From Methanobacteriota archaeon (lineage in GTDB: Archaea > Thermoplasmatota > Thermoplasmata > SG8-5 > JACRNV01): a stretch of DNA of 64,000 nucleotides. Location of the stretch: assembly GCA_016214785.1 (NCBI GenBank), contig JACRNV010000028.1:3445-67444 (forward strand). The letters run 5' to 3'. Both the position numbers and the translations under genes were made by a program. Positions 1 to 61,485 of the stretch are shown here, one piece after another. Position 1 is the first letter of the stretch, and each line of letters begins with the position of its first letter. The notes beneath the pieces are model-generated. The model did not search any database. It saw only the letters and a list, made by a program, of their open reading frames with translations, and was not told where the DNA came from.

Positions 1-159
1 TTCCAGGAAGGGGTCTTCGCGCTCCCCATAGTCTTCCCGATGGTAGCAAAGGACAAGGCGCGCATCCGCACGATAATGAACGCGGGCCTGACCAAGGACG
101 ACCTGAACGAGGCGCTGCGCGCCTTTGAAAAGGTCGGGAAGGAACTGAAGGCCATCTAA
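1..159 (+). CDS. C-terminal fragment of a PLP-dependent class-II aminotransferase-family acyltransferase (2-amino-3-ketobutyrate CoA ligase / 8-amino-7-oxononanoate synthase family). The 5' end lies outside the window.
   Basis: The frame-1 translation is ...[49 protein letters not shown] (TAA at 157-159). This matches the conserved C-terminus of Kbl/BioF-type enzymes (E. coli Kbl: ...FSFPVVPKGQARIRTQMSAAHTPEQITRAVEAFTRIGKQLGVIA). Confidence 0.55.
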
Positions 160-187
160 GGATAATCTTCAATAACACATTGCCTCA

Positions 188-371
188 ATCGATACTCCTT
201 AGCACCTCCCAAAGTTGAACACATCCGCATTCCGTGATGAAATCCTTTTGGGGGTCAAGGGGGTTTGCGGTCAAACCCCTTGATCGATACTCCTTAGCAC
301 CTCCCAAAGTTGAACACATCCGCATTCCGTGATGAAATCCTTTCCGTCGCAGGGGTCCAAGGGGAATTGCG
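188..371. repeat. Imperfect tandem direct repeat of about 95 nt in two copies. A 61-nt core is identical at 188-248 and 283-343, and the variable tails share a GGGGTC(C)AAGGGG motif.
   Basis: By eye, atcgatactccttagcacctcccaaagttgaacacatccgcattccgtgatgaaatccttt occurs twice with a 95-nt period. The tails are gggggtcaagggggtttgcgg versus ggggtccaaggggaattgcg. Confidence 0.8.
252..282 (+). other. Strong GC-rich hairpin (stem caagggggtttg / caaaccccttg, loop cggt) inside the first repeat copy, about 95 nt downstream of the upstream gene's stop codon. It could be a terminator or a structured RNA element.
   Basis: The inverted repeat is seen directly in the sequence: caagggggtttg-cggt-caaaccccttg. 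Confidence 0.4.
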
Positions 372-379
372 TTTATAAG
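372..379 (+). promoter_or_regulatory. Archaeal TATA-box candidate (tttataag) about 77 nt upstream of the NTPase start at 456.
   Basis: An AT-rich octamer matching the TTTAWATA consensus sits in an otherwise GC-rich spacer. Confidence 0.35.
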
Positions 380-455
380 AGATACGCAGCGGAGCAATGC
401 CCCTTGCAGGCCAGCAATTAAATACAGTTAATCCGTTCAGGTATTAGGGTGTGAA

Positions 456-2777
456 ATGGCCGCTGTAAAGTTCGTCGGCAGGTCGGTCGAGCTGGCCGCG
501 CTCAAGGCCCATCTCGACGCCGCGCGCAAGGGGGGGAGCAGGTTCGCGCTCGTCTCGGGGGAGGCGGGCGCGGGGAAGGCCCGGCTCGTCGAGGAGCTCG
601 TGGCCAAGCACGCGAAAGGGCTCATCGTCGCCAAGCACTTCACGCTCGAGAGGGAGCGCCGCGTGCCCTTCTCGGCCTTTGCCGACATCATCGCGCAGCT
701 CTCCAGGGCCGGGCACGCGCCCGGCGACGCGGTCAGGGGGCTGAGCGGGGACGGGCGGCGCTCGTCCGAGTCGCTCTCGAAGGAGCGGGACCGCCTCTTC
801 AGGGGCGTGCAGGAGTTCTTCGAGGGGCTGCCCGCATCCATTATTTTCATGGCTGACATGAACAACCTCGACGACGGCTCCACGGCCATGTTCCAGTACC
901 TCGCATCGAACATGAAGGGCGGGAAGATGCTATTCGCCGGCACGTACGCCCCCGACATGCTCGAGGACCCGACGGGCGCGATGCACCCGCTCGCCGAGGC
1001 CCTGGCCTCCATCATGGTCGAGGGGAAGGTCGCCACGCTGCCGCTGGACAGGATGTCCAGGGACGATGTGTCCAAGCTCACCGCGGCCAGGCTCGACGTG
1101 AAGTCCGTGCCGGCCAGCTTCCTGGAGGTCGTATGGAAGGTCACAGAGGGCAACCCGCTGTACGTCGTCGAGACGCTCGACGCCCTCGTGGAGCAGGGGC
1201 TCGACGTTGCCCTGAAGGACTGGGCGCGGAAGTTCGACCCTTCCAGGACGCCGATCCCGGCGAGCATCAAGGACGCCATCTCGGCGAGGTTCTCCAAGCT
1301 CGACGACAGGGAGCGCGCGGTCCTCCGGACGGCTGCGGTAATGGGGGCGGAGTTCAGGGCCGGACCGCTGCTGGAGGTGTCGGGCCTTCCGAAGGACGAT
1401 TTGCAGCAGGTCATGCAGTCGCTGGTCAGCCACAAGTTCGTCTACGAGGTCACCGAGGCAGCCGAGGAGACGTACCGGTTCGAGCATTCGCAGGTCAGGG
1501 ACATCGTGTGCGAGAGCGTCGGCGCAGACGCCAAGGGTTTGCACGGCAAGATTGCGCCTGTCCTCGAGCGGCTCGCGGGGAGGAGGCCGTTCGACGACGC
1601 GTACAGCCTCGCGTACCACTTCGACCTCGCGGACATCCACGACAAGGCTGCGATGTACGGCCTCATGGCCGGGCAGAAGGCCTTCGGGGTGAGCGCCGCC
1701 AGCGAGGGCCTGCGCTACGCCGAGGCGGGGCTGAGGCACGTGAAGCTCGTCGAGCCTTCGAAGAACAACACCTTCCTGGAGCTCAGCCTGCGCAAGCTCG
1801 CCGGCGACCTCAGGTTCCACCTCGGCGACTGGGACGCCTCGCTGAGGGACCTGGACACCGCCTTCCACCTTGCGGAGAAGGTAGTCTCCCCCGAGATGAT
1901 GTCCGCGGCCTCTTCGAGCATGGGGGACTTGCAGCGGTTCAGGGGCAACTATGAGGATGCCGAGAGAAACTTCGCGCGCGCCCTCGACATCGCGGAGGGC
2001 GCGGAGGATGCCCGTGGCAAGGCCATGGCCCTGAGAGGGCTCGGGTACTGCGCGTGGCGCACCGGCGACTACGGCGGGGCCGAGCGCAGGTTCTCCGAGT
2101 GCGTGCCCGTGGCCGAGAAGCTCGGCGACATGGCGCTGAAGGGCTCGCTCCTCCTCGAGATGGGGAACGTCCACACGTCGCGCGGGGACCTTGACGAGGC
2201 CGAGCGCAGCTACAAGTCGAGCATCGAGTTCACGGAGAAGGCCGGCGCGTTCTACGACATGGCCAGGGCGTACAACAACATCGGCGACATCTACCTCCAG
2301 CGCGAGAGGTGGGAAGAGGCGATAGGATATTTCGAGAAGTGCGCGGGCCTGGCCGATCGCCTGGGCAACAGGGACATGCTGGGGTGGGCGCACTTCAACC
2401 TCGGCGAGGCCTACGCCAAGAAGGGCGAGCTGGACAAGGCCGAGAAGGAGTGCCTCCTCGCGCTCGAGATACTGGCGAGGATGGACGACATGGTCGGCAT
2501 GGCCGGCATCTACAAGAACCTCGGCATCGTCAACAGGTTCAGGAAGGACTGGGACAAGTCCGAGGCGATGTTCAGGAAGAGCGCGGACATGGAGGAGGAG
2601 ATGAAGACCCCGCACCCGCTCGCAGAGACCCTCATAGAGTGGGGCGCCATGCGCATCGAAAGGGGCGACAAGGGCGGCGCCGCCGAGATACTGCGCAAGG
2701 CGGAGGACATCGCAGCCTCTATAAAGGCCGAGAAGCTCCTAGAGAGGGCACGCGCGGCCCTGAAGAAGGTCGGGTGA
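456..2777 (+). CDS. STAND-type P-loop NTPase (AAA_16/MalT-like N-terminus) with a long C-terminal TPR-repeat array, 773 aa. No HTH is evident.
   Basis: Walker A is SGEAGAGKARLV and Walker B is IIFMADMNNLDD. The C-terminal about 300 aa is made of repeated TPR-like units (e.g. ALRGLGYCAWRTGDYGGAERRF, MARAYNNIGDIYLQRERWEEAIGYF, NLGEAYAKKGELDKAEKECLLALEI). An RBS-like gggtg lies upstream of the ATG. Confidence 0.75.
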   Translation: MAAVKFVGRSVELAALKAHLDAARKGGSRFALVSGEAGAGKARLVEELVAKHAKGLIVAKHFTLERERRVPFSAFADIIAQLSRAGHAPGDAVRGLSGDGRRSSESLSKERDRLFRGVQEFFEGLPASIIFMADMNNLDDGSTAMFQYLASNMKGGKMLFAGTYAPDMLEDPTGAMHPLAEALASIMVEGKVATLPLDRMSRDDVSKLTAARLDVKSVPASFLEVVWKVTEGNPLYVVETLDALVEQGLDVALKDWARKFDPSRTPIPASIKDAISARFSKLDDRERAVLRTAAVMGAEFRAGPLLEVSGLPKDDLQQVMQSLVSHKFVYEVTEAAEETYRFEHSQVRDIVCESVGADAKGLHGKIAPVLERLAGRRPFDDAYSLAYHFDLADIHDKAAMYGLMAGQKAFGVSAASEGLRYAEAGLRHVKLVEPSKNNTFLELSLRKLAGDLRFHLGDWDASLRDLDTAFHLAEKVVSPEMMSAASSSMGDLQRFRGNYEDAERNFARALDIAEGAEDARGKAMALRGLGYCAWRTGDYGGAERRFSECVPVAEKLGDMALKGSLLLEMGNVHTSRGDLDEAERSYKSSIEFTEKAGAFYDMARAYNNIGDIYLQRERWEEAIGYFEKCAGLADRLGNRDMLGWAHFNLGEAYAKKGELDKAEKECLLALEILARMDDMVGMAGIYKNLGIVNRFRKDWDKSEAMFRKSADMEEEMKTPHPLAETLIEWGAMRIERGDKGGAAEILRKAEDIAASIKAEKLLERARAALKKVG

Positions 2778-3360: not shown

Positions 3361-5340
3361 ATGGACTACGGCGAGGCTGTCCGCTACCTGTACGATTTGC
3401 AGTACCTGGGAGTCAAGTTCGGGCTCGAGAACACGGCCGAGCTGCTCTTTCGCCTCGGCGGCCCGCACACCAGGTACAAGACCGTGCATGTCGCAGGCAC
3501 GAACGGCAAGGGCTCGGTCTGCGCGCTCGTCTCCTCGGTGCTCACAGCCGCGGGATACCGGACGGGCTTGTACACATCCCCGCATCTGATAGATTTCACA
3601 GAGCGCGTCAAGGTCGACGGCAAGGCCGCTGCCAGGGAGGATATCGCCCGACTCACCGCGGAGATTATCCCGCACCTGGAGGCGATGCGCAAGTCCCCCG
3701 AGGAAAGGCTCTGCACGTTCTTCGAGGCGACGACGGCCCTGGCGTTCAAGCATTTCGAAAATGAGGGCGTGGATGTCGCCGTCATGGAGACGGGGATGGG
3801 CGGGAGGCTCGATTCAACCAACGTCATCGTCCCGGAGGCCTCGGTCATTACCCGCCTCGGCATGGACCACATGAAATACCTCGGGGGTACGCTTGCGAAG
3901 ATAGCGCGCGAGAAGGCAGGCATAATCAAGCCCGGCGTCCCGGTCGTCAGCGCCGCGCAGGAGGGCGACGCCCTGCACGTCATTCGGCAAACCGCCGCGG
4001 AGCGAGGGTCGAAGCTTCGCGTCGAAGGGATTGATTTCCATTGCTCGCGCAAATCCTTTGGCATCGGAGGGCAGCGCCTTTCGTACAGGGGTTCGAGGGG
4101 GAGGCCGTTCGATGTCGATATCTCCCTGCTCGGCAAGTTCCAGGTCGAGAACGCCGGGCTGGCGCTGTGCGCCATCGAAGTTCTAAGAGAGCGGGGATTC
4201 GGCATTCCGGACGGCGCGATCCGCAAGGGCATGAAAGGCGCCAGGTGGCCCGCCCGCCTGCAGGTTGTCAGAAAGAATCCGCTCGTCGTCGTGGATGGCA
4301 TGCACAACCCCAACGCCGCTCAGGCGGTGGCCGACAGCTGGGGCGAGGTCTTCGGGAAGCGGAAAGTGAGACTCGTCCTCGGCATAATGGCAGACAAGGA
4401 CTACCCGAGGACGGCCAGCACAGTCTCGTCGAAGGCGAGCATGACGATAGCCACCGCCCCGGCGTTCCAGCGCGCGCTCCCGGCGGACAGGCTGGCGAGG
4501 GACATAGGCGCCGCAGAATATTACGATATCCCAGCGGATGCGATAGTCTCCGCCATCCGCGGGGCCGGGGATTCAAGCGCCGTCCTCATCGCGGGCTCGC
4601 TCTACCTTGCCGGCGAAGCGCTCATGTTCCTGGGGGATGCACCGCCGGACTCGGTCGACGTCTTCGAGCGCCTGCAGAAAGAATATTCGATCGGCGCGTT
4701 CCCCGGCCACGACGTCGGCGGGAACGAGGCCGTCGAGCCCGGCGGGCGCGAGCCGTTCCATGTTTTGATTTCAACGATACTCTCCCACCGGACCAGGGAC
4801 GAGAACACGCACAGGGCGTCGTCGGCGCTCCTCGCCAGGTACGGGACGCCCGAATCGCTCGCGAAGGCGCCCGTCGCGGAGGTTGAGCGGCTGGTGCGCC
4901 CTTCCGGGTTCTACAGGATGAAGGCCCGCTATGTCAAGGCGGCCGCCAAAGCCGTCGTCGATGACTTTGGCGGCAATGTCCCGCGCGACATCGGGTCGCT
5001 GATGGCCATCCCCGCCGTCGGGCGCAAGACCGCCAACTGCGTGCTTGTCTACGGCTTTGGCATACCGGCGATTCCCGTGGACGTGCATGTGCACAGGGTC
5101 TCGAACAGGCTCGGCCTCGTCAAAACGAAAACGCCCGACGATACAGAAACCATCCTAGCAACCGTCGTGCCAAAGTCCCTCTGGATAGACATCAACAGGC
5201 TCCTCGTGCGCCACGGCCAGGAAGTCTGCCAGCCTCGGAGGCCGCGCTGCCCGAAGTGCGTGCTGAGGGGCGTATGCATGCTTTGGCGGAGGGAATCTCT
5301 CCCCGTTTCGCAGAAGAAGAAGGGAAAGGGAGGCCGGTGA
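3361..5340 (+). CDS. Bifunctional fusion of a FolC-family (Mur-ligase) folylpolyglutamate synthase / dihydrofolate synthase-like N-terminal domain (about aa 1-420) with a C-terminal endonuclease III (Nth, HhH-GPD with [4Fe-4S] cluster loop) domain (about aa 435-659).
   Basis: N-terminal FolC motifs are YLYDLQYLGVKFGLENTAELLFRLGGP, HVAGTNGKGS (P-loop), YTSPHLIDFTERVKVDG and ETGMGGRLDSTN. C-terminal Nth motifs are FHVLISTILSHRTRDE, the HhH-GPD region PAVGRKTANCVLVYGFG...VDVHVHRV, and the cluster loop CQPRRPRCPKCVLRGVC. The frame is continuous with no stop. There is an internal in-frame ATG at 4624 at the domain junction. Confidence 0.7.
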   Translation: MDYGEAVRYLYDLQYLGVKFGLENTAELLFRLGGPHTRYKTVHVAGTNGKGSVCALVSSVLTAAGYRTGLYTSPHLIDFTERVKVDGKAAAREDIARLTAEIIPHLEAMRKSPEERLCTFFEATTALAFKHFENEGVDVAVMETGMGGRLDSTNVIVPEASVITRLGMDHMKYLGGTLAKIAREKAGIIKPGVPVVSAAQEGDALHVIRQTAAERGSKLRVEGIDFHCSRKSFGIGGQRLSYRGSRGRPFDVDISLLGKFQVENAGLALCAIEVLRERGFGIPDGAIRKGMKGARWPARLQVVRKNPLVVVDGMHNPNAAQAVADSWGEVFGKRKVRLVLGIMADKDYPRTASTVSSKASMTIATAPAFQRALPADRLARDIGAAEYYDIPADAIVSAIRGAGDSSAVLIAGSLYLAGEALMFLGDAPPDSVDVFERLQKEYSIGAFPGHDVGGNEAVEPGGREPFHVLISTILSHRTRDENTHRASSALLARYGTPESLAKAPVAEVERLVRPSGFYRMKARYVKAAAKAVVDDFGGNVPRDIGSLMAIPAVGRKTANCVLVYGFGIPAIPVDVHVHRVSNRLGLVKTKTPDDTETILATVVPKSLWIDINRLLVRHGQEVCQPRRPRCPKCVLRGVCMLWRRESLPVSQKKKGKGGR

Positions 5341-7725: not shown

Positions 7726-9138
7726 ATGAGACCACGTCCAGGTGGAATCCCTTCAGGAGAAGACTACTTCCCGAGAAGCGAAGAAGCTGAGCTCTGGCGA
7801 CGCATAGAGGAAAATTCCGCAATCCTTATTGCGCCAAGACGTTCTGGAAAGAGTACAATGCTCAACCACATGAAGGAGAAACCTGCGTCGAATTGGCAGG
7901 TTTATAATATCTTTTGTGAGGATATCGATAAAGAAGAGCAGATACGAATGAAGCTTGCATCCGTTCTCGTGAATTCTTCTAAAAAATCCGGAAATGTTCT
8001 AATAATCCTGGACGAGTTCCAAACTATGATTGTGCGTATGGCTAAAGGCAAGAATAGCACGAGGAAGATGAGGGAACTAGTCCGTGCTCTTCCTAAATTG
8101 AAATCACTTTCCGCTCCTGAAAAAAAAATCAGATTCGTGTACGCTGGTTCGAAAAGTTTTGATCTGGTCGCAAGGAAATATAATCTCGATGACTCATTTA
8201 AGGATTTACCGAGAATAATCCTCGCTCCACTATCCCGAGCCGATGCACTACGATACCTGACAAAGGTTCTGGGTGACGCGGGTGTTACTAATAAAAATGA
8301 GATTCCCCAATGGATATATCGTGAAGTGGGGTGTGGGTTTCTTTACTTCCTTGCGATACTCGCGGATAAAGCGATAGGTGCTCATGTGGATGGAACGGAA
8401 TTGACAGATGATGTGCTGGAAGAGCTCTATGAAAAATGTATTACCGGCGCAGTAGGTCGAGCCTATTTTCAGCACAACCATGAAGTATTGAAAATCTATA
8501 AAGAATTGGGTGGCGAGAAATATTTCGAAGCGGCTGAAGCAATCCTAGGGTACACGGCCACGCACTCGAAAATATCTCAGTCCACTGCCAATGAATTATT
8601 TAAGTTGCATTATCCGCACGCGAAGGATTGGCTATTTCAACAGCTCATGCTGGATCTTGAAAGTGATTTCTATCTTCGGTTAAAGGCCAAAGGAAATTAT
8701 GAATTCCAGGTGCACATTTTAGGAGACTGGTGGGGGAGGTATTATCCCTCAATGAGCGCGAAGGTCCTTGATGTGCTTCTCATCTGGCGTCCGAGTGGGA
8801 TTTTAATTTCCCATTTGCCATGTCCAGGTGGGGGGCTAAAGGGTGCTGATCAATCTGCGGCCCAACTCACCGCGACATACCAGGGACTGCGCAGTATAGA
8901 GTTCGAAGCTCCTGCGATCCAAGACCCTATGGGAAGAGGGACGTTCGTATTCCTGGAGAAAATGAAATATCTGCTTGTATGTAGAATAAATGGCAAGCCT
9001 ACTCGAAGGCTTGATTCGAAAATGAGGGACGCACTTAAAGGAATAAGTAAGCGTTATCCAAAGATGGATTGGGATGGAGATCGTGCTGTCTTTGACGGCA
9101 TTGAGGCATTTCTAAAGGAGCTATGTGGTGAGCATTAG
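7726..9138 (+). CDS. P-loop NTPase of the 'archaeal ATPase' (PF01637-like, AAA+/STAND) family, 470 aa, with an uncharacterised C-terminal half.
   Basis: The N-terminus FPRSEEAELWRRIEENSAILIAPRRSGKSTML carries Walker A and VLIILDEFQ is Walker B. The RBS is gaggt, 8 nt upstream of the ATG. Confidence 0.65.
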   Translation: MRPRPGGIPSGEDYFPRSEEAELWRRIEENSAILIAPRRSGKSTMLNHMKEKPASNWQVYNIFCEDIDKEEQIRMKLASVLVNSSKKSGNVLIILDEFQTMIVRMAKGKNSTRKMRELVRALPKLKSLSAPEKKIRFVYAGSKSFDLVARKYNLDDSFKDLPRIILAPLSRADALRYLTKVLGDAGVTNKNEIPQWIYREVGCGFLYFLAILADKAIGAHVDGTELTDDVLEELYEKCITGAVGRAYFQHNHEVLKIYKELGGEKYFEAAEAILGYTATHSKISQSTANELFKLHYPHAKDWLFQQLMLDLESDFYLRLKAKGNYEFQVHILGDWWGRYYPSMSAKVLDVLLIWRPSGILISHLPCPGGGLKGADQSAAQLTATYQGLRSIEFEAPAIQDPMGRGTFVFLEKMKYLLVCRINGKPTRRLDSKMRDALKGISKRYPKMDWDGDRAVFDGIEAFLKELCGEH

Positions 9139-9155
9139 CCGATGGAGGGATTGCA

Positions 9156-11477
9156 ATGGAAAAATCAAGAGAAATCGTAACCGCCATGAAGTGGGGCCCC
9201 GGGCAGGACGCCTTGTCCGCCAAAGCACGAGCAAGTCTCTTTGTGGGAAAAAGTAGAAAAGCACTCCTTGAAAAGTTTTTATTGGAATTAAAAGAATCGG
9301 CAAAGAGCAGAAGCATACAACACTATCTCGTTATAGGAACACGCGGAATGGGGAAATCGTTCTTCCTGTCAATCCTCTACGACAAGGTAAAAGAAGGGCA
9401 TGCTGGCGACGTGTGGGTTCCCATCAAAACCATGGAGAACGAGGATCAAATTACGAGCGCGCAGGCATTCATGGCTTCGATTATGAGATATCTGGGCAAC
9501 ACTCCTTTGAGCGGGGCTGTGGAACTCGCAAATGACATCCACAGAATAAAAGACGAGAATACTGCGGTTCAGCAGGCGACCGAACAGTTAGAGGAACTGT
9601 GCAAGAAAAATAAAAAAAGGATTTTGCTCCTAGTAAACAATTTCGACGAGATATATGAGAATATGTTCAAGGATACATCTAAGGCCGCGCTACGGGGAAT
9701 TCTCCAGCAACATTTCTGGCTCAAACTGATAGGTACAACCCGCAATATTACATTCTTAAAATTACTACAGGAAGAATACGAGGTTGAACTTTTCGGACAA
9801 CTATCTACCGAGGAGCTAGAACAACTCAGCGGGGATGAAGTTATTACGCTTCTCTATAAAATAGCCGAGGTTGAGGGCGATAAGGAAGTTTTAGAGAAAA
9901 TAGGTAGCGCCGAATGGCGCGAACGAAGGGTTAATGCAAAGGCTCTTGCAGAGCTGTGCTGCGGCGCGCCAAGAATGATTTACGTCATGTATCCATTTAT
10001 CGTGGAGAGCCGAACCGAAAGCGGACTGACCGTACTTCACAAGACGCTCGACGATCTAACGACTTACTACGAAGCGCAACGAATGTACCTTTCATCGCAA
10101 GAGCGGGCTGTTTATTCGGTCATCGCAAAATTAAATGGAAGTGCTTCTCCAAGCGAAATCGCGGAGGAGCTCCATATGGACATGAATGTTCTGAGCACTT
10201 ATTTAGCCCGATTGCAGGATAAAGATTACATTGAGAAGGTCCACGCTGACAGCGCAGATGCTCGAATCGTTCGATACCAGATACCAGATAAGATTTATGT
10301 CGTCTGGTATCAGAAGAATTACGGGGCGAAGGACGCGCGGTACAAGTGGCTGGTGGAGTTCTATAAAACAGCGTACAGCGCAGAGGAACTGGAACATGGC
10401 GTGGGCGAGCCGGAGGCTCCAGAGATCGTGAGAGAGAGCAAGCTCCGGGCGCTGTCGGAACTGAAGGCGCAGGTCTCTCAGACGATGATAGTTGAAACCG
10501 TACCAGAAGATAAAGAGTTAAGCGAATGGAACGCTGCCTTAGATAAAGGGATCGAAGCCTACCAGAAAGGAAAATTCAACGATGCTTTGTCAGAATGGAC
10601 AAGAGCCCAGAAAGCATGTGAAATCCTTGTGAAGAAATACCCCGATAATTTAATGTATCAGGAAAAACTGGCAGGATCCTTAAACAATCTAGGCCTCTTG
10701 ATGAATGACATGGGTAGATTTTTAGAATCGCTAAATTATAAAGAACGCGCACTAGCATTGTTCGAAGCATTATTAACCAGAGATCCAACGAACGCACGTT
10801 TTCAATCCTCTGTAGCTATGGCTTTGAACAACCTCGGCAACTTGTTGAGCGACCTCGGGAGACGGGAAGAGTCTTTGAAGCGCTACGAGTCCGCGCTTGA
10901 GATGAGAGAAACTTTATTGAACAGTGATCCAAAAAATATAAACTATCAATCAAGCGTCATAGGAACGACTACGAATCAGGTAGACCTTCTCACTACTATA
11001 GGAAGGCATCGCGATGCCATTAGGACTCTGGACGCGGCCATACGTATAATTCCAGAAAATCACGAATTGCTCCTCCTGCGCTCCTCGGCCAATCTCGCCT
11101 TGCAAAATGATGGGCTCGCAAGGGACGACCTCCGAGCCGCCCTTAATCTTCTCGAAAGCAAAGGCAATGGAGAATTTTTGACCGAGATACACCCTGCGCT
11201 CCTCTCGTACCTGAGGCATGGAACGCCCGGTTTTACCATTGAGGCTATCAAGATTGTCTGCGCGGTATTTGGGACGTCGCTGGAGGATGAGAAGGCAAAG
11301 CCATTGATCCCTTTCAAGATGGCCGCAGAGTTCCTGGCGTCCGACCGCAGTTCAGGCACGCTTTTCAATCTCGACCCGTTGACGCGCGATGCCACATACA
11401 AAGTGCTGCGCGATTCCGGTCATGAAGGGGATATCGAGGCACTGAATTACAAAGGGAAGCGGAAGAAACGGAAATGA
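9156..11477 (+). CDS. STAND-type P-loop NTPase (archaeal-ATPase-like), 773 aa, with a central winged-helix domain and a C-terminal TPR array.
   Basis: Walker A is VIGTRGMGKSFFLS and Walker B is ILLLVNNFDE. The wHTH-like segment is SPSEIAEELHMDMNVLSTYLARLQDKDYIEK. The TPRs include NLGLLMNDMGRFLESLNYKERALALFEALL and NLGNLLSDLGRREESLKRYESALEM. The RBS ggaggg is 6 nt upstream. Confidence 0.65.
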   Translation: MEKSREIVTAMKWGPGQDALSAKARASLFVGKSRKALLEKFLLELKESAKSRSIQHYLVIGTRGMGKSFFLSILYDKVKEGHAGDVWVPIKTMENEDQITSAQAFMASIMRYLGNTPLSGAVELANDIHRIKDENTAVQQATEQLEELCKKNKKRILLLVNNFDEIYENMFKDTSKAALRGILQQHFWLKLIGTTRNITFLKLLQEEYEVELFGQLSTEELEQLSGDEVITLLYKIAEVEGDKEVLEKIGSAEWRERRVNAKALAELCCGAPRMIYVMYPFIVESRTESGLTVLHKTLDDLTTYYEAQRMYLSSQERAVYSVIAKLNGSASPSEIAEELHMDMNVLSTYLARLQDKDYIEKVHADSADARIVRYQIPDKIYVVWYQKNYGAKDARYKWLVEFYKTAYSAEELEHGVGEPEAPEIVRESKLRALSELKAQVSQTMIVETVPEDKELSEWNAALDKGIEAYQKGKFNDALSEWTRAQKACEILVKKYPDNLMYQEKLAGSLNNLGLLMNDMGRFLESLNYKERALALFEALLTRDPTNARFQSSVAMALNNLGNLLSDLGRREESLKRYESALEMRETLLNSDPKNINYQSSVIGTTTNQVDLLTTIGRHRDAIRTLDAAIRIIPENHELLLLRSSANLALQNDGLARDDLRAALNLLESKGNGEFLTEIHPALLSYLRHGTPGFTIEAIKIVCAVFGTSLEDEKAKPLIPFKMAAEFLASDRSSGTLFNLDPLTRDATYKVLRDSGHEGDIEALNYKGKRKKRK

Positions 11478-12078: not shown

Positions 12079-12834
12079 CTATGCCTTCTTCCTCCTCGCT
12101 ATGAGGATCATCCCGATGAGTATCGCGGCGACTGCGACCGCCAGCACTACGCCGTAGAACCAGTCGAAGCCTTCCTGCTTGAGGTAGAAAGTCTTCGCGG
12201 TGTAGATGTCCCCCGAGCCCGGGGATACTACGCCGTCGCCGTCAACGTCCCCCTTGATGACCAGGGTGTGCGCCCCGGCCGGAGGGTTGGCCACTATCCA
12301 GTCGGCGGTTATGTTCGTGCTCTGGCCGGCGGAAATAGAGATCCTCTGCGTATCCACGAGCACATCATCGATATATATTTGGACGGGGAGGCTGTCTATG
12401 TTAATCTTGGAGGGGTTTTCTACCTGGCACGAGACGCTCAGAGGCTGGACGACCTGGATGGTCTTGACCGCGTCGCGCCATTCCGTGCCTTTCGAGACGT
12501 TCACGTAAAGGTCGACCGCGCCCTTGACGCTCGGCGCGGTGACGTTTATCAGCACGGACGTCTCGGTGACGTTCCCCTTAAGGGGCGTGTTCTTGGTCGG
12601 CGTCGCGTTGGTGGTGTTGCCGTTCGTGAAGTACGCCTCGTACTTCCAGTCCGGCCCCTCGGCGCCCACGACCAGTACCTTGTACTCCCCGGACTTGTTC
12701 AGCCCCAGGGCGTTCGGGCCCTCGATGTAGACCCGGATCGTGGCATTGCCGGCCGCATGGGCCGCGCCTGCCTGGAGGAGCGTCATCGACAGGAGCGCAG
12801 CCAGCGCCACCGACGCCAGGAGCCTCCCGCTCAT
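12079..12834 (-). CDS. Secreted, C-terminally membrane-anchored surface protein of 251 aa, extremely rich in N-glycosylation sequons. It is translationally coupled to the upstream AglB-like gene by an ATGA overlap.
   Basis: It has a signal peptide (MSGRLLASVALAALLSMTLLQAGAAHAAG), at least 12 N-x-S/T sequons, and a C-terminal TM helix plus RRKKA. The start ATG at 12834 overlaps the AglB stop TGA at 12831-12833. Confidence 0.65.
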   Translation of the reverse strand: MSGRLLASVALAALLSMTLLQAGAAHAAGNATIRVYIEGPNALGLNKSGEYKVLVVGAEGPDWKYEAYFTNGNTTNATPTKNTPLKGNVTETSVLINVTAPSVKGAVDLYVNVSKGTEWRDAVKTIQVVQPLSVSCQVENPSKINIDSLPVQIYIDDVLVDTQRISISAGQSTNITADWIVANPPAGAHTLVIKGDVDGDGVVSPGSGDIYTAKTFYLKQEGFDWFYGVVLAVAVAAILIGMILIARRKKA

Positions 12835-15800
12835 CCGACCCACCTCCGGCGCTTGGCGATGTAGTAAAGCACGAGCACAATCGCTACCACAATGGCGGCT
12901 GTGCCGATGCCCTGAAGCTGTGCGTCCCACGGCGTCTGCGCCGTGACGAGGTCGCCCTTGACCTCCACCATCTGGACGTCGGCCGACATGAGCGGTACGG
13001 AGACGTCGAGCAGCGAGCGGGCGCCGTCCGGGTCGTCCAGCGACTTGCCGACAAGTTTTACGACCACTCCGGGCTCCGCATCGGCCCTGGCCTTCTTGAG
13101 GGTGAACCGGACCTCCTTGAACTCGCCGCCCTTCATCTGTGCCACAGTGGCCGTCGTGTTGTTAATCGTCCAGCCGACCGAGGGCTCCCACGAGAAGGTC
13201 CAGCCGAACCTTGCCAGCTCCTCCTCGTTCAGGCACGTTACCGAGCAGTTGTCGGGGCCGTTGCCTCCGTTGGTCATCGAGACGCCGAAGGAGACGTTCG
13301 AGCCCGAAACCGTTGGCGGGCTCGGGGAGAGGAAGGTGCTGACAGTGTAGTTGTGGTAGATGGGAACGTCTAGTGTCTTGGTGATGGACGCCGTCGAGCC
13401 GATGAGCTTGGACCTTGCGAGTACGTTGATCGGTGTGTGGTCGGTCTTCGCGTCAGCCGGGATGGTTATGACGGCGCGGACTGGCATGGACTCGCCGGAT
13501 CCTAGGGAGATCTGGCTCAGGTTGAGCTTGACGTCCCAGGTCGGCTCCTGGGATGTGGAAAGTGTGTATGTATCAGGGACGTTTCCCTTGTTGTTGACGT
13601 CAAAGGTGTAGATGGCCTCGCTGCCCTGCACGAATGTCCGCTTCTGGGCGGTGTCCCACACTATCTCGACCCCGTAGGTCTTCTCCTTGGACAGCTCGCT
13701 GCTCAGCCTCGTCGACCGGCTCATCTCGGCGGTGCTGCTCATCGAGTACGGGACCGTAATGCCGCCTTCGAGAACGTCGAGCGTTGCCGCGACTTCGTAC
13801 GTGGCCTGCGGCAGCCAGGTCTCGAAGTACCCGAGGCTGTCGGCGCTCAGCTTTCGCTCGACGCCCAGGAACTTGATGGATATGGACGCGTTGTCCGCCG
13901 GCGTCCCGGCCCCGTAATACAGGTTGCCGGAGAGCTTGAAGGCCTCCGTTGCCGCGAGGGCCAGTTCCGTGCCCTCCCTCGTCAAATTGAACGCTCGCAG
14001 CAGGCCCGCGCGCTCGTCCGGGGAGGCGAGATATGCCACGTAGCTGCCGGGCGCCAGCTCTGTCTGGAAGCTGCCGTTCGCGCTGAGATTGGCCTGCGAC
14101 GATATTCCGCCACCGCCCGAGGCGAAAAGCTGCAGGGCCGCGCTGGCCGGCGCCGCGAGGCCGCCAACGGCGCCTTTGACGGAAGCGTTGACTATGTCGC
14201 GCTGCGCGCGAACCGGGACGAACTGGCTCCCCACGGAGGCCGTTACGTTGTTTGTGACCCCCTTGTAATGGTATTCGCGCTCGACGCTTCCGTCGGTTGA
14301 GTTCTGCTTGAAGTCGCTCGTGAAGTTGTAAGTCTGGCGGGTAGGCAGGTAGAGCTTGAAGTCACCCGTCTCGTTGTCCGTGACGGCCGAGAAGGTCGCG
14401 CCCGTCTTTGCCTCGATGGCGCTTACCGGGACGTTCTTCATCTTGGCGCCCTGGAAATCGACGCTCCCCGTGACGAGCGAAGATTCGTTCAGGGCCACCG
14501 TTACGTTGCCTGCCGTCGGGACGAAGAAGCGCTCGTACCCGGTGACAACCGTACCGTTGGTGCCCGCGACCGCCGTGGCCGTGTAATTCCCGCCCTTGAG
14601 CGAGATCACAGTTTCGCCGAGGGCCGAGAGAGACAGGCTCTCCTCGCCGGTGAACGTATAGTTTGTGATATGTTGCTGGCCCGCCATCGCCGCGCTGACA
14701 TTTACGAGATACCGCATCTCGGCCAGCAAATCGATCATCACGGGCTCTTCGCTGAGGCCGAGCCGCAGCCCAAGGCTGCGCTCCCTGAGCTCGTACACAA
14801 CGGTGTCGCTGACCTTGAAAGACAAAGTGAGGTTATATTCGGCCGGGGGAAGTTCTCCGGAGTACGCATTGCCGATTATCGGCATCTCGTATACCTCCTT
14901 GCTGAACAGCCTCTCGGCCACAACCTTTCCGCCGTCCAGGGTCGTCCCGTCGTTCGTCCTCACACCGCCCGAAACGGATATGCGCCGGGGCGAGAGGTCG
15001 AAATACCAGTACACCGCATTCTCCGGATTGCGAGACATGGGCCGGGTCTCATCCGTATATGTCATTGATGCGTAGCCCGGGGAGTAGGCGGTCATCGTCG
15101 GGTTCTCGCCCAGGTACTTGACGAGGAACCGGCCACTCAGGTCGGTATATATATCTCTCGTGCCTGCCGCATCGACGACCTGGCCATAGCCTGGCAGCCC
15201 CTCTCCCTCGTCGAAGGCGCCGTTCCGGGTCGTGTCGTTGTAGATGATTCCGCCGTATTCCTGGGCGGCGCCGACGTCGACTTCGATTGTCGTGGTGGCC
15301 GCGCTGACTGACACGCGCTGCTTCATGCCGAGCCATATCGCGCCGAGGTCGTCGTTCATGACCGTGACGTTGTACTGCCCGTACGGGAGCAGGGCCGTGA
15401 AGCGGTCCGCCGGGTTGGTTCTGGTGTAGAAAGTGCCGCTCCCCTCTATCTGGACTTTGGCGTCGGGCGATGGCTCGAATGAGCCGCCTGTCAGCAGTCT
15501 CCCGTTCAGCCTGCCCGCTGGCTGCAGGGCAACGTCGATCGAGACTGCGTCGGTGACTCTCAGGTTGCCCAGGTACGCGAACTCCGAGCCGGACACCTCC
15601 CTCGATGCATATACGGAGTAAAAGCCGAAGGGAATCCTGTCTTCCAGCTTGCCAGCCCCGTCGGCGAAGAGCATGACCGACCGCTTCGGATCGTTGAGGT
15701 TCTGGAATGTCACGGACAGATTGGCCGCGGGCGCGCCCTGTATCGTGGCCTGGACCGTGAGCGGCGCTGCCGGATAGACCGTGATGTTAAGCGTGGAGTT

Positions 15801-18800
15801 GGTCAGCTTGCGCACCTCGATCGGCGCCGGGATGCTCCAGTAGTTGCCCGAGGATGCGCGGTAGGTGTAATTCCCGACCACCAGGGAGACGTTGAAGTTT
15901 CCGCTGCCGTCCGTGATGGCCGATTCGACGTTGTGGCCCTGGCTGTCGGTGATGTTCACCAGCGCCTGCCCGATCCCGAAATTGAGCTCGTCCGCGACGT
16001 GGCCCGAGAGGTTCACCGGCGTCGTCCCGATGTTCTTGACGAACCCGGTGTTGCTGTAGGTCACAGACACGGAGTCCTCCGAGGCTATGTTGACGCCGTT
16101 GTACGTGACAATGAGCCGGTAGTTGCCCTGCGCCATGCCTGGTATGGAGTAGTTGCCCGCGCTGTCGGTCTTTGCGGCGTAGCTCATGTTGAACGCAAGC
16201 GCGCCATAGTCCAGGTCGGCGCCGGGGAGCGTGGTCTCATCGGGGTTCCTGTTTCCGTCCCCGTTGCTGTCGATGTAGACGATTCCAGACACGTTCGCGG
16301 GCTCGAGGACCGGGCTGTGGGTGATGATGTAGTCGGGTATGCCGTTCCCGTCCAGGTCGAGCTGCTCGCGCATGGCCTGGTCGTCCCTGATGAACATCTT
16401 CGTGTTGTTGAGCTCGGTGCCGACCATGGTCATCTTCAGCGGCTCTCCGGACGAGACGATTATCGAAACGTTGCCCATGGGCGCAAGGAGCGAGTACCTG
16501 CCATCCGAGTCCGTCAGGACCGAGTCGTGGGGTATCTGGTACATGTCCTGCACGGTCACTCGCAGGCCCTCCACGGGCGGCCCGCCCCTGAGCCTTATCT
16601 GGCCCTGGACGATGGCTCCGTCGTAATACTTCAGCATGTTCACGCCCTGATAAAGGCTGGACTGCGTAGACAGGTCGACGACGCCCTCGGCCTCGCCAGC
16701 CTGTATCTTGGCCTGGAGGGCGACAGCGTCGTCGTAGTTCATGGCCGTCCATGCGTCCGTGTGGTTGCGCACCTGTTCCATCGGGTAGGGGTTGTAGTAT
16801 GCAGTGCGGTGGAATATCCTGAAATTCTTCATCATGTAGCCCGGCATCGCGGGCTGGTTCTGGAGGCTCCCGGAAAGGCCTGGTATGCCCGAGTCGTTCG
16901 ACTGCCCCACGTCGGGGCCCGAGTATCCGATGAAGCACTTGTAGAGCATGGTCTTGTAGAACATGTCGTGGTACACTAGCTTGTAGTCCGTGATTTGAAC
17001 ATCTTTGGGAACGTCGTTGATGTCGTATTCGCCGCCGTACTCTCCGACCCCCTTGATCTCCCAGAAGTCGTAGGGCATGTTCGGGGTCTTTATCCTGTGG
17101 TCGGATAGCTTGGCCGGGGCGTAGAAGATGCCGGTGTTGTCGGCCGAGAACGGGAAGAGCCTGCTGTCGACTGCGAAGTACCTGATGCTCTTGCCGGTGG
17201 CGTCCCTCAGGTCGTGGTACAGGCCTGTTACCTGCGTCTGGTTCATGCTCATTGAGATTATGGCCATGGCCTTCAGGATCCTCGCGTTCTCGTCCTGCAC
17301 CCTCGAGTCGCGCGGCCCGTATATCTCGGGGTGGGCGAGTATCTCGGCCTTGTAGTTCTGCGGGTTGCGGAAGGCGTCGTCCACGGCAGCGGGGTCAATG
17401 TTGTATTTAACGAGGACATCCCTCACTCCGGGGCTGAATGCCATGTCCTTCTTCTCGGTGTACAGCGGAGCGTACCAGTCTCCCTGCAGTAATCTCATGC
17501 AGAACAGGGATATCGCGTTGGACTCGTTCTGCGCCATCAGGAAATTGCCCGCGACGTTGTGCCCGCCAAGGAAGTTGTCCGCGACCGTGGGATGCTCCCC
17601 CTGGTTGATGACCTCGAACCCGTAGTCCCACCAGCTTATGAACGCAGGTCGCTCAGAGAACGGATATGTGCCGTTGTCCTGCGTGGCGAGCCAGCGGTAG
17701 GCAGAAGGCCAGTATCGATTGTTGAGCGGCATAGAGTAACCGTGCCCTCCGAGGTACCACGTGGACCCGTTAACTTCGTCGTATGTGGCCGATGCCGTGA
17801 ATGAGGGCATGACCTGGTAAAGCCTCTTGTCGTAATCGGTCTTGACCTCGTAAGGCATGCCGCCGTCCAGCCCTGCCCAAACATTGGGGACGACGACCAT
17901 GAACGCAAGGAAGAGGACGCCAGCCACCACCCGCACGCGCGTTTCCCTCATTATGAAGAACAGGACGCCCAGATAGAACGCCGTTATGACCGGCACCCAT
18001 GCGTGGTCCACCGTGCGCTTGAAGCCGGAATAGTAGGCGATGTAGAGGGCCAGCGCCACCAGCAGCGGTATCATCGCCGCCAGGTAGTACCTGTCCTTTG
18101 CCCTGAGTCCGTAGGTGTACAGCATGAAGAGGATCACCAATACCGCGCTGACGCCGAGCGCGACCGGCGCGAGGTTGTTGAGGTAGTAGTACCCGGCGAC
18201 CGCGCCAGCGATGGCTAAGCCCATTGCGAGCAGCGCCACCATTATCCCACTGGTGCCGAAGATGGTCGCGCCCCTGAACCTCGACTGGCGCGATATCTCG
18301 CCCTTCAGGTCGAGCTTGTCCAGGAGCATCGCGATGACCCATCCGGCCATTATTGCGAAACCGGGCGCGGCGTTGAACATGAAGCGGGCGGATATCACGG
18401 CCATGTATATCGAGAATATCATGAGGAGGATGATGAAGATGAAGTCCGGCTTGAGCTTCTTCGGCAGCTGGTAGAGGCCGAGGCCCAATCCCGCGATGGA
18501 GAGCCAGAACGTGATGAGGCCGAACGAGGTGGCGAGGTTGCTGAAGGGCGGAGCCTGCGCCTCGGCGATGGTCTCGTACTGCTTGCTCGTGATGAAGTAG
18601 CCGCTCGCGCTCGCAATCTTGTCGACGAGCGAGCCGTACAATGTCGGGCTGGCCACGAAAATCGCCGCGACGGCGATGACTGCCAGCAGGGCCATGGAAG
18701 CAAGGACCAATGTCCAGGGGTATTTCCGGGTGAGCATCAGGATTGCGGCTATCCCGGTCGTGCCCAGGTAAATGTACCCGGGCAGGTCCCACCACCCGGC

Positions 18801-19835: not shown

Positions 19836-20100
19836 AATGCTGGTTCTATATATGCCTTGCCTTTAAGTGAGATAATAGCTCACACACCACAACCATCTAA
19901 AAAGCATAGACCCATCCTGCCCTAGACCACCTGTGCAATTAGCGTTGGTCTGGGTATTGGTCAGGCAATAAATAGTATGGTTCTTCCTGACCTTCGGCTC
20001 GCTCGGCTCTTTCAGTTGTTTCTAGAAATCCTTTTGTCCTATGGCGCATTGTTATATGCGCAACACATGGATTGAGGGCGACCGCAATTAGAATAGGTAG

Positions 20101-20925
20101 GTGCAAAAAGTGCCTAACAGTATTAAGTCCTGCTACGGAAAAGAGGCTCGGAAGGAATGGAATAGGCTCGCGAAGGACACATTCCACAGGCTCGAGTTCG
20201 ATACCACCATGCATTTCCTGGAGCGTTATCTCCCAAGGAAGGGGATAATATTGGACGCGGGCTGCGGTCCGGGCAGATATTCGATTGAGCTCACAAAGAG
20301 AGGCTACGATGTCGTATTGCTGGATATTACCCCGGAAATGCTTGATTTCGCTAAGCAGGAAGTTAAAAAGGCTCGCACCAGCCAAAGGGTGAAGGGGGTT
20401 GTTGAGGGCTCTATCCTTGACCTAGCGGATTTCCAGGACGGTGAATTCGAGGCAGTCCTTTGTCTTGGCTCGGTTTTAGGGCATATCAAAGGGGCTGGGA
20501 GGCGTGCGAATGCAATGTGCGAGCTGAGACGGGTCGCGAAGAAAGGCGCGCCCATCTTCGTTTCCGTTGTTGGGAAGGTGGCTGTGCTGAAAGCCATGCA
20601 ACTATACTGGCAGGGGGAAATAATGGCAACGCGCAATTTCAAAAGGATTGTCGAGACCGGCGACGACCATCACTGGCACACCGGTTTCTACTGCCACTTC
20701 TTTATGCTGGACGAATTGCAGAAAATATTCGAAAACGCGGGGATTAAAGTACTGGCATCCGCCGGTCTTGAGGGAATCTCGATAAGGGGGGAGCACGGCA
20801 TAAACAAACATTCTGGAAATGCGAAAATCATGGACAACTGGATGTGGGCGCATGGCAAGCTCTGCACCGATCCCACGGTCGCCGGAGGAAGCGAGCACAT
20901 CCTGATTGTTGGAAGGAAGGTTTAA
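20101..20925 (+). CDS. Class I SAM-dependent methyltransferase, 274 aa, with a GTG start.
   Basis: Motif I is ILDAGCGPGRYS, with acidic post-I DVVLLD. The RBS-like aggtag precedes the GTG. Confidence 0.7.
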   Translation: MQKVPNSIKSCYGKEARKEWNRLAKDTFHRLEFDTTMHFLERYLPRKGIILDAGCGPGRYSIELTKRGYDVVLLDITPEMLDFAKQEVKKARTSQRVKGVVEGSILDLADFQDGEFEAVLCLGSVLGHIKGAGRRANAMCELRRVAKKGAPIFVSVVGKVAVLKAMQLYWQGEIMATRNFKRIVETGDDHHWHTGFYCHFFMLDELQKIFENAGIKVLASAGLEGISIRGEHGINKHSGNAKIMDNWMWAHGKLCTDPTVAGGSEHILIVGRKV

Positions 20926-28086: not shown

Positions 28087-28239
28087 TATTCGTTTTATGT
28101 GGACATAAATCCTTTATCGGGGTCCTAGGGGAATTCGCTTTTCAGCAAACACTCAGCGAAGAATGCCCCTAGAGAGGAAGAAGGATTCGAAAGCTTAATA
28201 ATCCCTTCCGCGCATGTATATCGCACAGAGGGCATAAAA

Positions 28240-31200: not shown

Positions 31201-31290
31201 TCGCCACTTTCAGACACTTACGTCCTGAAGCGCGGGGAAGGCTACTGGGTCTATATGTCATCCCCAACGACGTGGGTCGTGGACTGGTAG
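28240..31290 (+). CDS. Secreted right-handed parallel beta-helix repeat protein (NosD/pectate-lyase-like), 1016 aa. It contains two tandem beta-helix modules from an internal duplication. It has a GTG start and a signal peptide.
   Basis: IRINSDVEFASMAASEGWAGDGTQGNPYIIENYDISGSG and FRINSDAEFASMATSEGWAGDGTQGNPYIIENYDIDGTG recur about 400 aa apart. About 20-aa rungs (NNTASSNNDLGIYLYSSSSN...) repeat. The gene is visibly AT-richer than its neighbours. Confidence 0.7.
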   Translation: MGGATGKGIAISVGILMMLSAVVIGSQQTGEGAQSPPGKAPASLLPISSNYVAHAPIRINSDVEFASMAASEGWAGDGTQGNPYIIENYDISGSGYRGCIYIGNTTSYFVLRNCYLHHATGTFSEPYFTDSGLALCNAQNGSITNNIVMYDVEGIYGNLASHNIFSNNTVKQNSDGGIYFLSCSSNTFMYNNCSNNAAGISLKSGSNSNNVVNNTFNSTSYWGLDVTSSLNNFISNNTASANSKYGFYLRTSSNSNTIVNNTISANIQYGIVLELSSSNTIYQNNFINNTNHASDNRNDNWWNASYPTGGNYWSNYAGVDLLSGPSQDQPGSDGFSDTPYNIDADSKDAYPIVIDVIIACTYPIDGSILPNTAPSTYIIQFNKVMDKMVGIISTNLPGVTWTWSADGIWYNGTYGALQLSTTYYVDLIGGGFMDYTGSPLTGDNYKNFTTWDGIHCPPFRINSDAEFASMATSEGWAGDGTQGNPYIIENYDIDGTGFGYCIYVGNTTDYFVVRNCYLHHASGNSGTYYWNSGIVFYNVQNGIIANNTASSNNDLGIYLYSSSSNIIANNTASSNNYYGILLESSTSNTIVNNTASSNNDLGIYLYSSSSNTITNNTASNNFNGILLSTSSYNVIENNTAFSNLGGAGVNLSTSDNNLITNNSACSNGQGIFLSRSNWNTIIFNELSDNQYSDGPCGIWFRDKSDYNDIAYNNITNNFFGIWIQYRGEPIGSNGNNITNNTFLSNYAGINIAANFATANRIIHNNFINNINYQASTVASNYWYASYPYGGNYWSDYNGLDVKSGSSQSLPGADGIGDTPYTNIQGGTGAADKYPLMVPCGSTSSYFKIPVHLGWNLISTPLLPSSKSLPSVFIDTDGNTSWDRVQSYSPSTPTNLWMQYYTGWASSLNDLKSADQTIGVWLNVTNLGDGYINVSGNITPFTTIPLYAGWNLIGYPAKNDSAYTIANLMSATGATIVEGYDGLATYRTSPLSDTYVLKRGEGYWVYMSSPTTWVVDW
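29860..30100 (+). repeat. Intragenic tandem nucleotide repeats, in about 60-nt units encoding 20-aa beta-helix rungs. A 49-nt exact duplicate occurs at 29889-29937 and 30029-30077.
   Basis: tcctcgaacaacgacctaggcatctatctctactcctccagcagcaaca occurs twice, 140 nt apart. Confidence 0.7.
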
Positions 31291-34291: not shown

Positions 34292-34402
34292 GGCCCTTAT
34301 CTCCGATATGCGCGGAACTATGTGGATTGGAATAGAAATTGGGTTAATAAAGCCTTCGAAATCGTGGCGCGACCTTTTTATCACCCAGGCCGATTCGGAG
34401 GC

Positions 34403-61362: not shown

Positions 61363-61485
61363 GATATCACGCCTCTCGCAATCGCGCCGTGGCATAAATC
61401 CTTTGCCCAACGTGAGCTGCGCAATCGACCGAAAAGCATTTATCGACCCACCAGGTTTGCAGCACGCACATGCCGGAGGGCTAAG

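Follow-up and report, generated by a model that had tools for sequence, protein, structure and literature searches.

A probable family of small palindromic repeats with a covarying hairpin core in an uncultured Thermoplasmatota archaeon

Small palindromic repeats affect mRNA stability, termination, supercoiling and recombination in bacteria, and they shape bacterial genomes. In the systems built on repetitive extragenic palindromic (REP) sequences and bacterial interspersed mosaic elements (BIMEs), the repeats flank an associated RAYT (REP-associated tyrosine transposase), an enzyme of the IS200/IS605 type. To our knowledge, such repeats are well catalogued in bacteria and barely in archaea. 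Here we describe a recurrent intergenic element in a 64,000-nucleotide stretch of DNA (hereafter the window) from an uncultured Thermoplasmatota archaeon (contig JACRNV010000028.1 of assembly GCA_016214785.1). It was noticed through a 9-mer, AAATCCTTT (the box), that recurs there in the company of a G-rich box. We consider it likely that this motif forms the head of a family of non-coding palindromic repeats, specific to the lineage and similar in kind to REP elements and to miniature transposable elements with inverted repeats (MITEs), which is carried by this archaeon and its close relatives.

PMC3733652 describes REP, BIME and REPIN elements from bacterial phyla only; a bacterial REP measures 20-40 nt, is imperfectly palindromic, and has a GTAG or CGTC tag and a loop of 4-5 nt. 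The minimal unit of the element described here spans ~75-80 nt and consists of AAATCCTTT, a spacer of 1-8 nt, a tag GGGG(G)TC and, behind it, a hairpin. Like the REP and BIME elements, it is a short, GC-rich imperfect palindrome with a conserved tag at one end (the 'head'), and it is present in many intergenic copies, which occur as singletons, as head-to-head or inverted dimers, and in mosaics with other short motifs. Its stems are kept and its loops are free to vary, its presence differs between related genomes, and it is likely transcribed as RNA hairpins. It departs from the bacterial elements in its archaeal host and in its tag, which is preceded by AAATCCTTT and is neither GTAG nor CGTC (the latter occurs in three spacers only). 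Moreover, no RAYT or IS200-type transposase was seen in the window or beside the copies. In size, the short form of the hairpin (27-35 nt) fits the bacterial range, whereas the long form measures 49-53 nt and has a loop of ~23 nt.

The element also shares features with MITEs, including those of archaea, in being small, non-coding, multi-copy and intergenic, and in showing insertion/absence polymorphism between relatives. Inverted hairpin units stand at both ends of two composites of ~300 nt, on the contigs L064 and L075, in the manner of long terminal inverted repeats. However, apart from the hairpin itself, single units lack terminal inverted repeats, and the commonest unit is one hairpin of ~80 nt. 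There is no clean target-site duplication, the flanking direct repeats being family sequence of 8-35 nt, and no related autonomous insertion sequence was found in the window or in the DNA beside the copies. Because the GTAG/CGTC tag, the size of the long form and a fixed target duplication all fail, we file the family under neither REP elements nor MITEs; we class it more broadly, as a new member of the small palindromic repeat elements.

The box as the head of a covarying hairpin

A preliminary description of this DNA reported the box at five intergenic places on the plus strand, with a G-rich box close behind it at three of them and TATA-like elements further downstream, and proposed either a shared regulon operator (upstream activator site) or a small repeated element. 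The recurrence is real. The 9-mer occurs seven times in the window against 0.17 expected (a figure taken from dinucleotide shuffles), none of 100 shuffles reaches seven copies, and it is the sole word with at least five copies among the 1761 distinct 9-mers of the window that have seven A/T bases. Five copies are intergenic and all of these lie on the plus strand (240, 335, 20026, 28107 and 61396); two more, missed in the preliminary description, fall in coding sequence (4051 on the plus strand and 9616 on the minus strand). The G-rich box GGGGTCCWAGGGGAATT matches exactly at 352-368 and 28119-28135, and its first instance (250-263) is the variant GGGGGTCAAGGGGG. Matches to the composite pattern AAATCCTTTN{0,10}GGGGTCN{1,2}AGGGG are found at 240, 335 and 28107, against 0.00 expected, and the TATA-like elements exist as claimed (TTTATAA at 372, TTATATG at 20052 and ATTTATC at 61438).

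The copies at 240 and 335 are not independent, as both lie within a 66-nt duplicated block (183-248 and 278-343; 97% identical). The copies at 335 and 28107 open ~80 nt of homologous sequence (nhmmer E-values of 1e-23 to 1e-25), with no further match in the window. Three of the five intergenic copies therefore represent one repeat family, and two are solo. Chance recurrence of an AT-rich 9-mer in AT-rich intergenic DNA, combined with an accidental match of two G-rich boxes, would accommodate the two copies inside genes, the two intergenic copies that have no hairpin, and the marginal similarity of the regions around 20026 and 61396 to family members beyond the box (pairwise alignment; z of 1-4 for 20026). 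As an explanation of the whole it is extremely improbable, however, given that no other word of equal composition stands out as this one does, the ~80 nt of homology between two of the sites, and homologues on other contigs and in another metagenome. Chance is refuted for the composite element and is possible for the solo copies at 20026, 4051 and 9616.

We designate the copies in the window A (A1 and A2) and B; L016 to L086 are contigs of the source run or of a metagenome. In an alignment of A2 (334-410) with B (28104-28180), the box and its spacer are followed by GGGGTCC-W-AGGGGAATT, a divergent AT-rich stretch, and (C)AATGCCCCT-W-G. The bases at the two W positions vary in step (CAAGGGG/CCCCTTG in A2, CTAGGGG/CCCCTAG in B), and the G-rich box is therefore the 5' arm of a hairpin. 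The outer stem (P1) has seven base pairs, and the inner stem (P2, ATTGC/GCAAT) has four or five. An A.G (or GA/G) internal loop between P1 and P2 is kept in every long copy, and the AT-rich terminal loop has CGAAG at its end, kept on the 3' side. Loop sequences form related subfamilies (ACTC..CAATAAT, DTTTA...). The short form, which consists of stems only, is represented by A1 and by copies on L050, L079 and L082; the layout of A1 is TCAAGGGG-N13-CCCCTTGA. All copies have GGGG(G)TC as the tag beside the stem, and CGTC is confined to the longer spacers of A2, L064r and L075r.

A covariance model (R1) built from 11 long copies recovers, at E <= 1e-7, 11 long copies and three short ones. It has no further match in the window, where A2 scores 76 bits, B 70.5 bits and A1 36.2 bits (E = 4e-8). 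In the model-based alignment 99.3% of cells make standard pairs, compared with 92% after column shuffling and at most 64% when partners are slid. Four of the 11 stem pairs have changed on both sides, in nine cells, and the covariation score is reached by none of 500 shuffles; an independent MAFFT alignment gives the same covariation picture. Hairpin B differs from A2 by a compensatory A-T to T-A change in P1, and P2 appears across the copies as ATTGC/GCAAT, ATTAC/GTAAT and ATTGT/ACAAT. The predicted minimum-energy fold of A2 contains both P1 and P2, and a predicted fold also backs hairpin B. Pairing in the hairpin, be it in RNA or in single-stranded DNA, is thus maintained by compensatory change and is under selection.

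In all we identified ~16 copies at 12 loci, in the window, on other contigs of the source sample, and in a related population represented by a second metagenome. DNA identical to that of the window occurs in Logan contigs (an assembly with k=31) of the source run, SRR12113407. The window has a G+C content of 59%, and its genes include a tRNA gene with an intron, an AglB/STT3 oligosaccharyl transferase, an archaeal methionine adenosyltransferase (MAT) and HMG-CoA reductase; its topoisomerase I is 100% identical to a protein of one metagenome-assembled genome at NCBI, and the next relative, only 66% identical, is in a Thermoplasmatota metagenome-assembled genome. A scan of metagenomes with the composite pattern, which demanded both the AAATCCTTT box and the G-rich part, matched 62 contigs, most of them by chance (~50), and nine contained true homologues that include the full downstream arm. 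All nine derive from one Joint Genome Institute (JGI) sample, Ga0315268, whose contigs represent a close relative: the CCA-adding enzymes of L050 and of the source-run contig L082 share 90% identity, and a MAT from this sample is 83% identical to that of the window. When one genome per species was searched for the exact G-rich box across 185,579 species (GTDB), only 14 scattered and unrelated single matches were found, and three scans of viral contigs gave no match to the element. Of the two earlier proposals, the small repeated element is the one that these data support, as a unit of ~75-80 nt with a covarying hairpin core.

Genomic context, gain or loss, and composite modules

All ~16 copies are intergenic. 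Open reading frames and Pfam domains, determined for each contig, place A, B, L070 and L075 between tandem genes, L066 and L076 between convergent ones, L031 between divergent ones, and L045 antisense to both of its neighbours, so that the location of a copy is independent of promoter position. These contexts bear directly on the other proposal, a regulon operator in which a transcription factor would bind AAATCCTTT and the G-rich box and co-regulate downstream genes on the plus strand. In the window, the five intergenic boxes do all lie on the plus strand, 75-135 nt before plus-strand start codons and with a TATA-like element 26-41 nt downstream, and 12 of 14 family copies keep the box strictly. 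We nevertheless regard an operator as very unlikely. Copies between convergent genes and in antisense positions do not suit it, the arms of the G-rich box covary so that pairing is constrained and not a sequence read by a protein, and the distance from box to TATA-like element varies. The genes downstream in the window (for a STAND ATPase, a NosD-like surface protein, a methyltransferase and MAT) have no function in common, and the neighbours of copies on the other contigs likewise differ in function.

Two comparisons with relatives count further against an operator: copies are gained or lost at orthologous sites, as described below, and the box between hmgA and MAT is not kept. The latter comparison was one of those on which the preliminary description had itself made its proposal depend, and it largely refutes the operator. 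On L085 and L084, which carry a MAT 83-84% identical to that of the window, the BRE/TATA promoter of MAT (ACCGAAAAGCATWTAWC; transcription factor B recognition element and TATA box) is conserved, and a different TATATA box stands at the place equivalent to AAATCCTTT. Context, compensatory pairing, presence or absence in relatives and non-conservation at hmgA/MAT together leave the operator unsupported.

Gain or loss is seen where L050 (Ga0315268) and L082 (source sample) share a syntenic block of three genes. Upstream of a gene for a 236-aa protein, L050 carries a composite element that starts exactly at ATCTAAGGATAATCT, and the same flank in L082 has no composite and 112 nt of ordinary promoter region instead. 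On the opposite flank of the block a hairpin dimer lies 8 nt before a gene for a 365-aa protein in L082, and the sequence of L050 at this place is unrelated. Elements have thus been gained or lost at single intergenic sites since these relatives diverged. The repetitive nature of the element is also recorded in the assembly itself, as three Logan contigs of the source run break inside it. L016 ends at window position 28136, within the 5' arm of hairpin B; L086 starts at window position 356, within the 5' arm of A2; and L082 starts with the reverse complement of the terminal 30-mer of L016, joined to a different flank. An identical 30-mer at the ends of L016 and L082 is the mark left where a repeat makes a k=31 assembly graph branch. 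It also proves that a third copy, similar to B, exists outside the window.

Some hairpin units are joined to one of two modules. The first, M1 (66 nt), is the duplicated block of locus A; besides the two copies in the window, L050 has two (92-93% identical) and L031 has one (90%). The arrangement M1-hairpin-M1 recurs at a different locus in L050, 88-93% identical and including a near-identical copy of A1; the apparent tandem repeat at 183-343 is therefore a repeated composite. The 15-mer ATCTAAGGATAATCT opens this paralogous composite as well, amid unrelated flanking DNA. The second module, M2 (GGGGTTAGAATGG...TCAACCGTYTCTAC...), is found on L064, L066, L075 and L076. Inverted hairpin pairs lie ~190 nt apart in the bounded composites of L064 and L075, and a head-to-head dimer occupies positions 1-65 of L082. 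In L066 a 35-nt direct repeat of the end of M2 flanks the hairpin unit. Such flanking direct repeats consist of family sequence (GGGGTTAGAATGG...), and there are none at A2, B, L045 and L070. M1 also carries CACCTCC on the plus strand, which on the minus strand reads as GGGAGGTG plus AAGGAG, a perfect Shine-Dalgarno/anti-Shine-Dalgarno-like string.

Units of the family are thus found alone, paired (inverted or head-to-head), and combined with modules M1 and M2. Their spread may depend on an enzyme that acts in trans and recognises the hairpin, once folded, together with its tag; recombination or duplication may also account for it. Effects on neighbouring genes, if any, would be incidental, and could arise from a stable stem-loop in readthrough transcripts, from the outward-facing, promoter-like AAAGGATTT (the box read on the opposite strand), or from the TATA-like loop of A2. 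A local regulatory side effect is possible, for instance at A2, whose TATA-bearing loop lies 78 nt before the start codon of an ATPase gene.

Several observations weigh against a repeat family of this kind. No transposase, integrase or other mobilising gene is present in the 64-kb window or beside any copy, clean target-site duplications are absent, and only ~16 copies were seen in the window, the source-sample contigs and Ga0315268 taken together. Both full copies of the window lie upstream of plus-strand genes, with a good TATA box in the loop of A2. The energy of single-sequence folds is only weakly better than that of shuffled sequences (z of -0.8 to -2.6). In addition, the association between box and hairpin is inflated by ascertainment, since the scan pattern demanded AAATCCTTT; the two copies found without this requirement, L064r and L075r, have the degenerate boxes GATTTCCGTC and CATCTTCCGTC. 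Two bolder interpretations, which we judge quite unlikely, go beyond a family of repeats. The element could be an archaeal counterpart of REP/REPIN systems, with its A.G internal loop and GGGGTC tag, spread as folded single strands by a putative dedicated enzyme. Alternatively, hairpin and outward-facing AAAGGATTT could form a portable promoter/terminator cassette driving small RNAs, for which M1 with its Shine-Dalgarno mimic GGGAGGUG would be a candidate.

The opposite strand of the box and the solo copies

The reverse complement of the box, AAAGGATTT, resembles the local type of BRE/TATA promoter. Promoter-like sequences before start codons in this lineage follow AAA-R-N-N-TTTAT (AAARNNTTTAT) or belong to an AAAGGAT-W-rich type. 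Read on the minus strand from 61404 to 61393, the solo copy at 61396 becomes AAAGGATTTATG, which fits the first of these patterns and centres its TATA 33 nt before the hmgA ATG at 61362, a start that agrees with the Logan gene call. In archaeal promoters a T/A-rich box, preceded directly by a purine-rich BRE, is expected ~25-35 nt before the start of transcription or a leaderless start codon. Because of this fit and this spacing, the copy is most likely the BRE/TATA promoter of hmgA and would be a thing separate from the repeat family. The five plus-strand positions given in the preliminary description are correct, and it is the strand of this one site that was probably misread. We also observed that the MAT promoter, ACCGAAAAGCAT(T/A)TA(T/A)C, is kept across the window, L085 and L084, and that the divergent hmgA promoter beside it has been replaced.

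The likeness to archaeal promoters is incomplete within the family. There only AAAGGATTT is conserved, and the remaining would-be TATA varies and is often poor (TTTCAT, TTTCTC, TTTGAC, TTTCAG), which suggests that most family copies are at best cryptic outward-facing promoters. Since many of them face the 3' end of a gene, most copies are unlikely to be working promoters.

These promoter-like strings, together with the paired stems, raise the question of whether the elements act as structured RNA. Under such an explanation they would be stabilisers or processing signals in the 3' untranslated region of the gene upstream, or parts of small RNA genes in which AAAGGATTT is a BRE/TATA that drives M1 or M2 and the hairpins bound the units. 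Covariation favours pairing, and in seven of ten copies the left neighbour is co-directional and ends 20-250 nt upstream. The minus strand of locus A reads as a tandem of box, 57 nt of M1 and then hairpin; AAAGGATTT resembles the local promoters AAAGGATTATAAAC, AAAGGATAAATAG, AAAGGCTTTATAA and AAAGGATTTATG; and M1 contains the Shine-Dalgarno-like strings noted above. We nonetheless consider a structured RNA unlikely. A search of Rfam 15 matched only tRNAs (in the window at the gathering threshold and in nine related loci at E <= 1), so that no Rfam family corresponds to the element. Conservation stops at AAAGGATTT, an oligo-T terminator is not consistently present, and inverted copies occur within one element. 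M1 and M2 vary too little to test structure.

A number of more specific candidates were considered and rejected. GTGATGA, which adjoins the box at locus A, might suggest a C/D-box small RNA, but a D box (CTGA) is lacking, and B and most other copies do not have the string. The internal loop is not a K-turn or L7Ae site, as it has no 3-nt bulge followed by tandem G.A pairs. A tRNA fragment or an integration att site is contradicted by the lack of tRNA similarity and by the identity of only ~70% between A2 and B. No T-run follows the hairpin on either strand, as an intrinsic or oligo-T terminator would require, and the RYYYAAC/GTTRRRY boundaries of an integron attC site are missing. The loci are not CRISPR arrays, having 1.3-1.7 tandem units each and 'spacers' conserved between loci. 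A pair of origin recognition boxes, with a G-string and dyad flanking AT-rich DNA, is at odds with the large number of loci and with the lack of an adjacent orc1/cdc6. No Rfam match points to a riboswitch or other known RNA, and what might be taken for guide-like hypervariable loops is ordinary divergence within related subfamilies.

The second solo copy, at 20026, lies in the divergent region between aglB and a methyltransferase gene and has no covariance-model match. The BRE/TATA of aglB itself is at ~19855-19875, adjoining the start codon, and the box at 20026 may be a degenerate relic or a chance occurrence. Close by, positions 20040-20100 contain a palindrome (GGCGCAT-TGTTAT-ATGCGC) with a TATA-like loop, plus TTAGAATAGG, which resembles M2. 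With an alignment z of only ~3, this region is a possible remnant of a composite element that has decayed.

Other features of the window and significance

Table 1. Coordinates of the features described (window positions unless a contig is named)
Feature	Position	Strand	Remarks
Left-most block of locus A composite, ATCTAAGGATAATCT	154..168	+	Overlaps stop codon of upstream gene
Module M1, copy 1	183..248	+	66 nt; direct-repeat family D8; ends in AAATCCTTT at 240-248
Short hairpin A1	250..283	+	Tag GGGGGTC; stem TCAAGGGG/CCCCTTGA (255-262 with 276-283); loop GTTTGCGGTCAAA
Module M1, copy 2	278..343	+	66 nt; ends in AAATCCTTT at 335-343
Spacer CCGTCGCA between box and G-tag	344..351	+	Homologous CCGTC spacers before L064r and L075r
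Long hairpin A2	352..406	+	Tag GGGGTC 352-357; P1 358-364 with 400-406; P2 366-370 with 394-398; mismatch A365.G399; loop 371-393, holding TTTATAA at 372-378
Promoter-like sequence AAAACGTTTATAT	3156		Local example
AAATCCTTT in Mur-ligase/HhH-GPD gene (3361-5340)	4051..4059	+	No part of the element
AAATCCTTT in low-GC AAA_16/TPR gene (9156-11477)	9616..9624	-	No part of the element
Solo AAATCCTTT	20026..20034	+	aglB/methyltransferase divergent region; without family hairpin
Box AAATCCTTT of element B	28107..28115	+	21 nt past topA stop codon
Long hairpin B	28119..28172	+	Tag GGGGTC; P1 CTAGGGG/CCCCTAG (28125-28131 with 28166-28172); P2 ATTC/GAAT
AAGGATT, complementary to box	28181..28187	+	Possible outer stem (predicted fold) in copy B only; other copies without it
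Promoter-like sequence AAAGGATAAATAG	before 49042		Local example
Solo box, minus strand AAAGGATTTATG	61393..61404	-	Probable BRE/TATA promoter of hmgA (ATG 61362)
Promoter ACCGAAAAGCATTTATC of MAT (BRE/TATA)	61429..61445	+	Corresponds to the TATA-like element placed at 61440 in the preliminary description
Promoter-like sequence AAAGCATTTATC	MAT		Local example
Promoter-like sequence GAAGGATTAAATATC	before 63342		Local example
Promoter-like sequence AAAGGATTATAAAC	L082		Local example
Promoter-like sequence AAAGGCTTTATAA	L075		Local example
Module M2 (TCAACCGTYTCTAC..CATCAYGC...GAGGGGTTAGAATGG)	L064 290-530		One of four loci
Module M2	L066 1770-2010	-	One of four loci
Module M2	L075 2430-2680		One of four loci
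Module M2	L076 1390-1640		One of four loci

Genes for STAND-type AAA_16 and/or TPR (MalT-like) proteins are unusually frequent in this lineage (window 456-2777, 9156-11477, 32513-34630 and 58838-59974; L066 533-1744; L070 926-2275). Three hairpin copies adjoin genes of this class, which may be chance, as such genes are abundant. Genes with a low third-position G+C (0.44-0.63, against ~0.85 elsewhere) occupy 7726-11477, 20101-20925 and 28240-31290; they encode, among others, an AAA_14 ATPase, an AAA_16/MarR-HTH/TPR protein and a NosD-like beta-helix protein, and may be horizontally acquired islands. The NosD/beta-helix gene contains three tandem 69-nt repeats (29865-30095; 85-91% identical) that correspond to repeated beta-helix turns.

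Further observations concern single genes and one unrelated word. A tRNA gene with an intron of ~38 nt lies on the minus strand at 39695-39804 (Rfam, 50.3 bits) and was missed by ARAGORN in bacterial mode. A very large AglB/STT3 protein of 2334 aa, encoded on the minus strand at 12831-19835, has appended CarboxypepD_reg and Ig-like domains. The 9-mer ATATATATC is over-represented, with seven strand-counted matches at five places (12370, 15147, 33440, 48472 and 61737), two of them palindromic. All five places are within long reading frames and putatively coding, and the word is unrelated to the box motif.

As a probable family of small palindromic repeats, the elements described here provide a structure-supported example of this kind of sequence from an uncultured lineage of Thermoplasmatota, and a covariance model of them is ready for use. 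They break short-read assemblies of the lineage. They are also mistakable for regulatory motifs, because one end of the element looks like a local BRE/TATA promoter.

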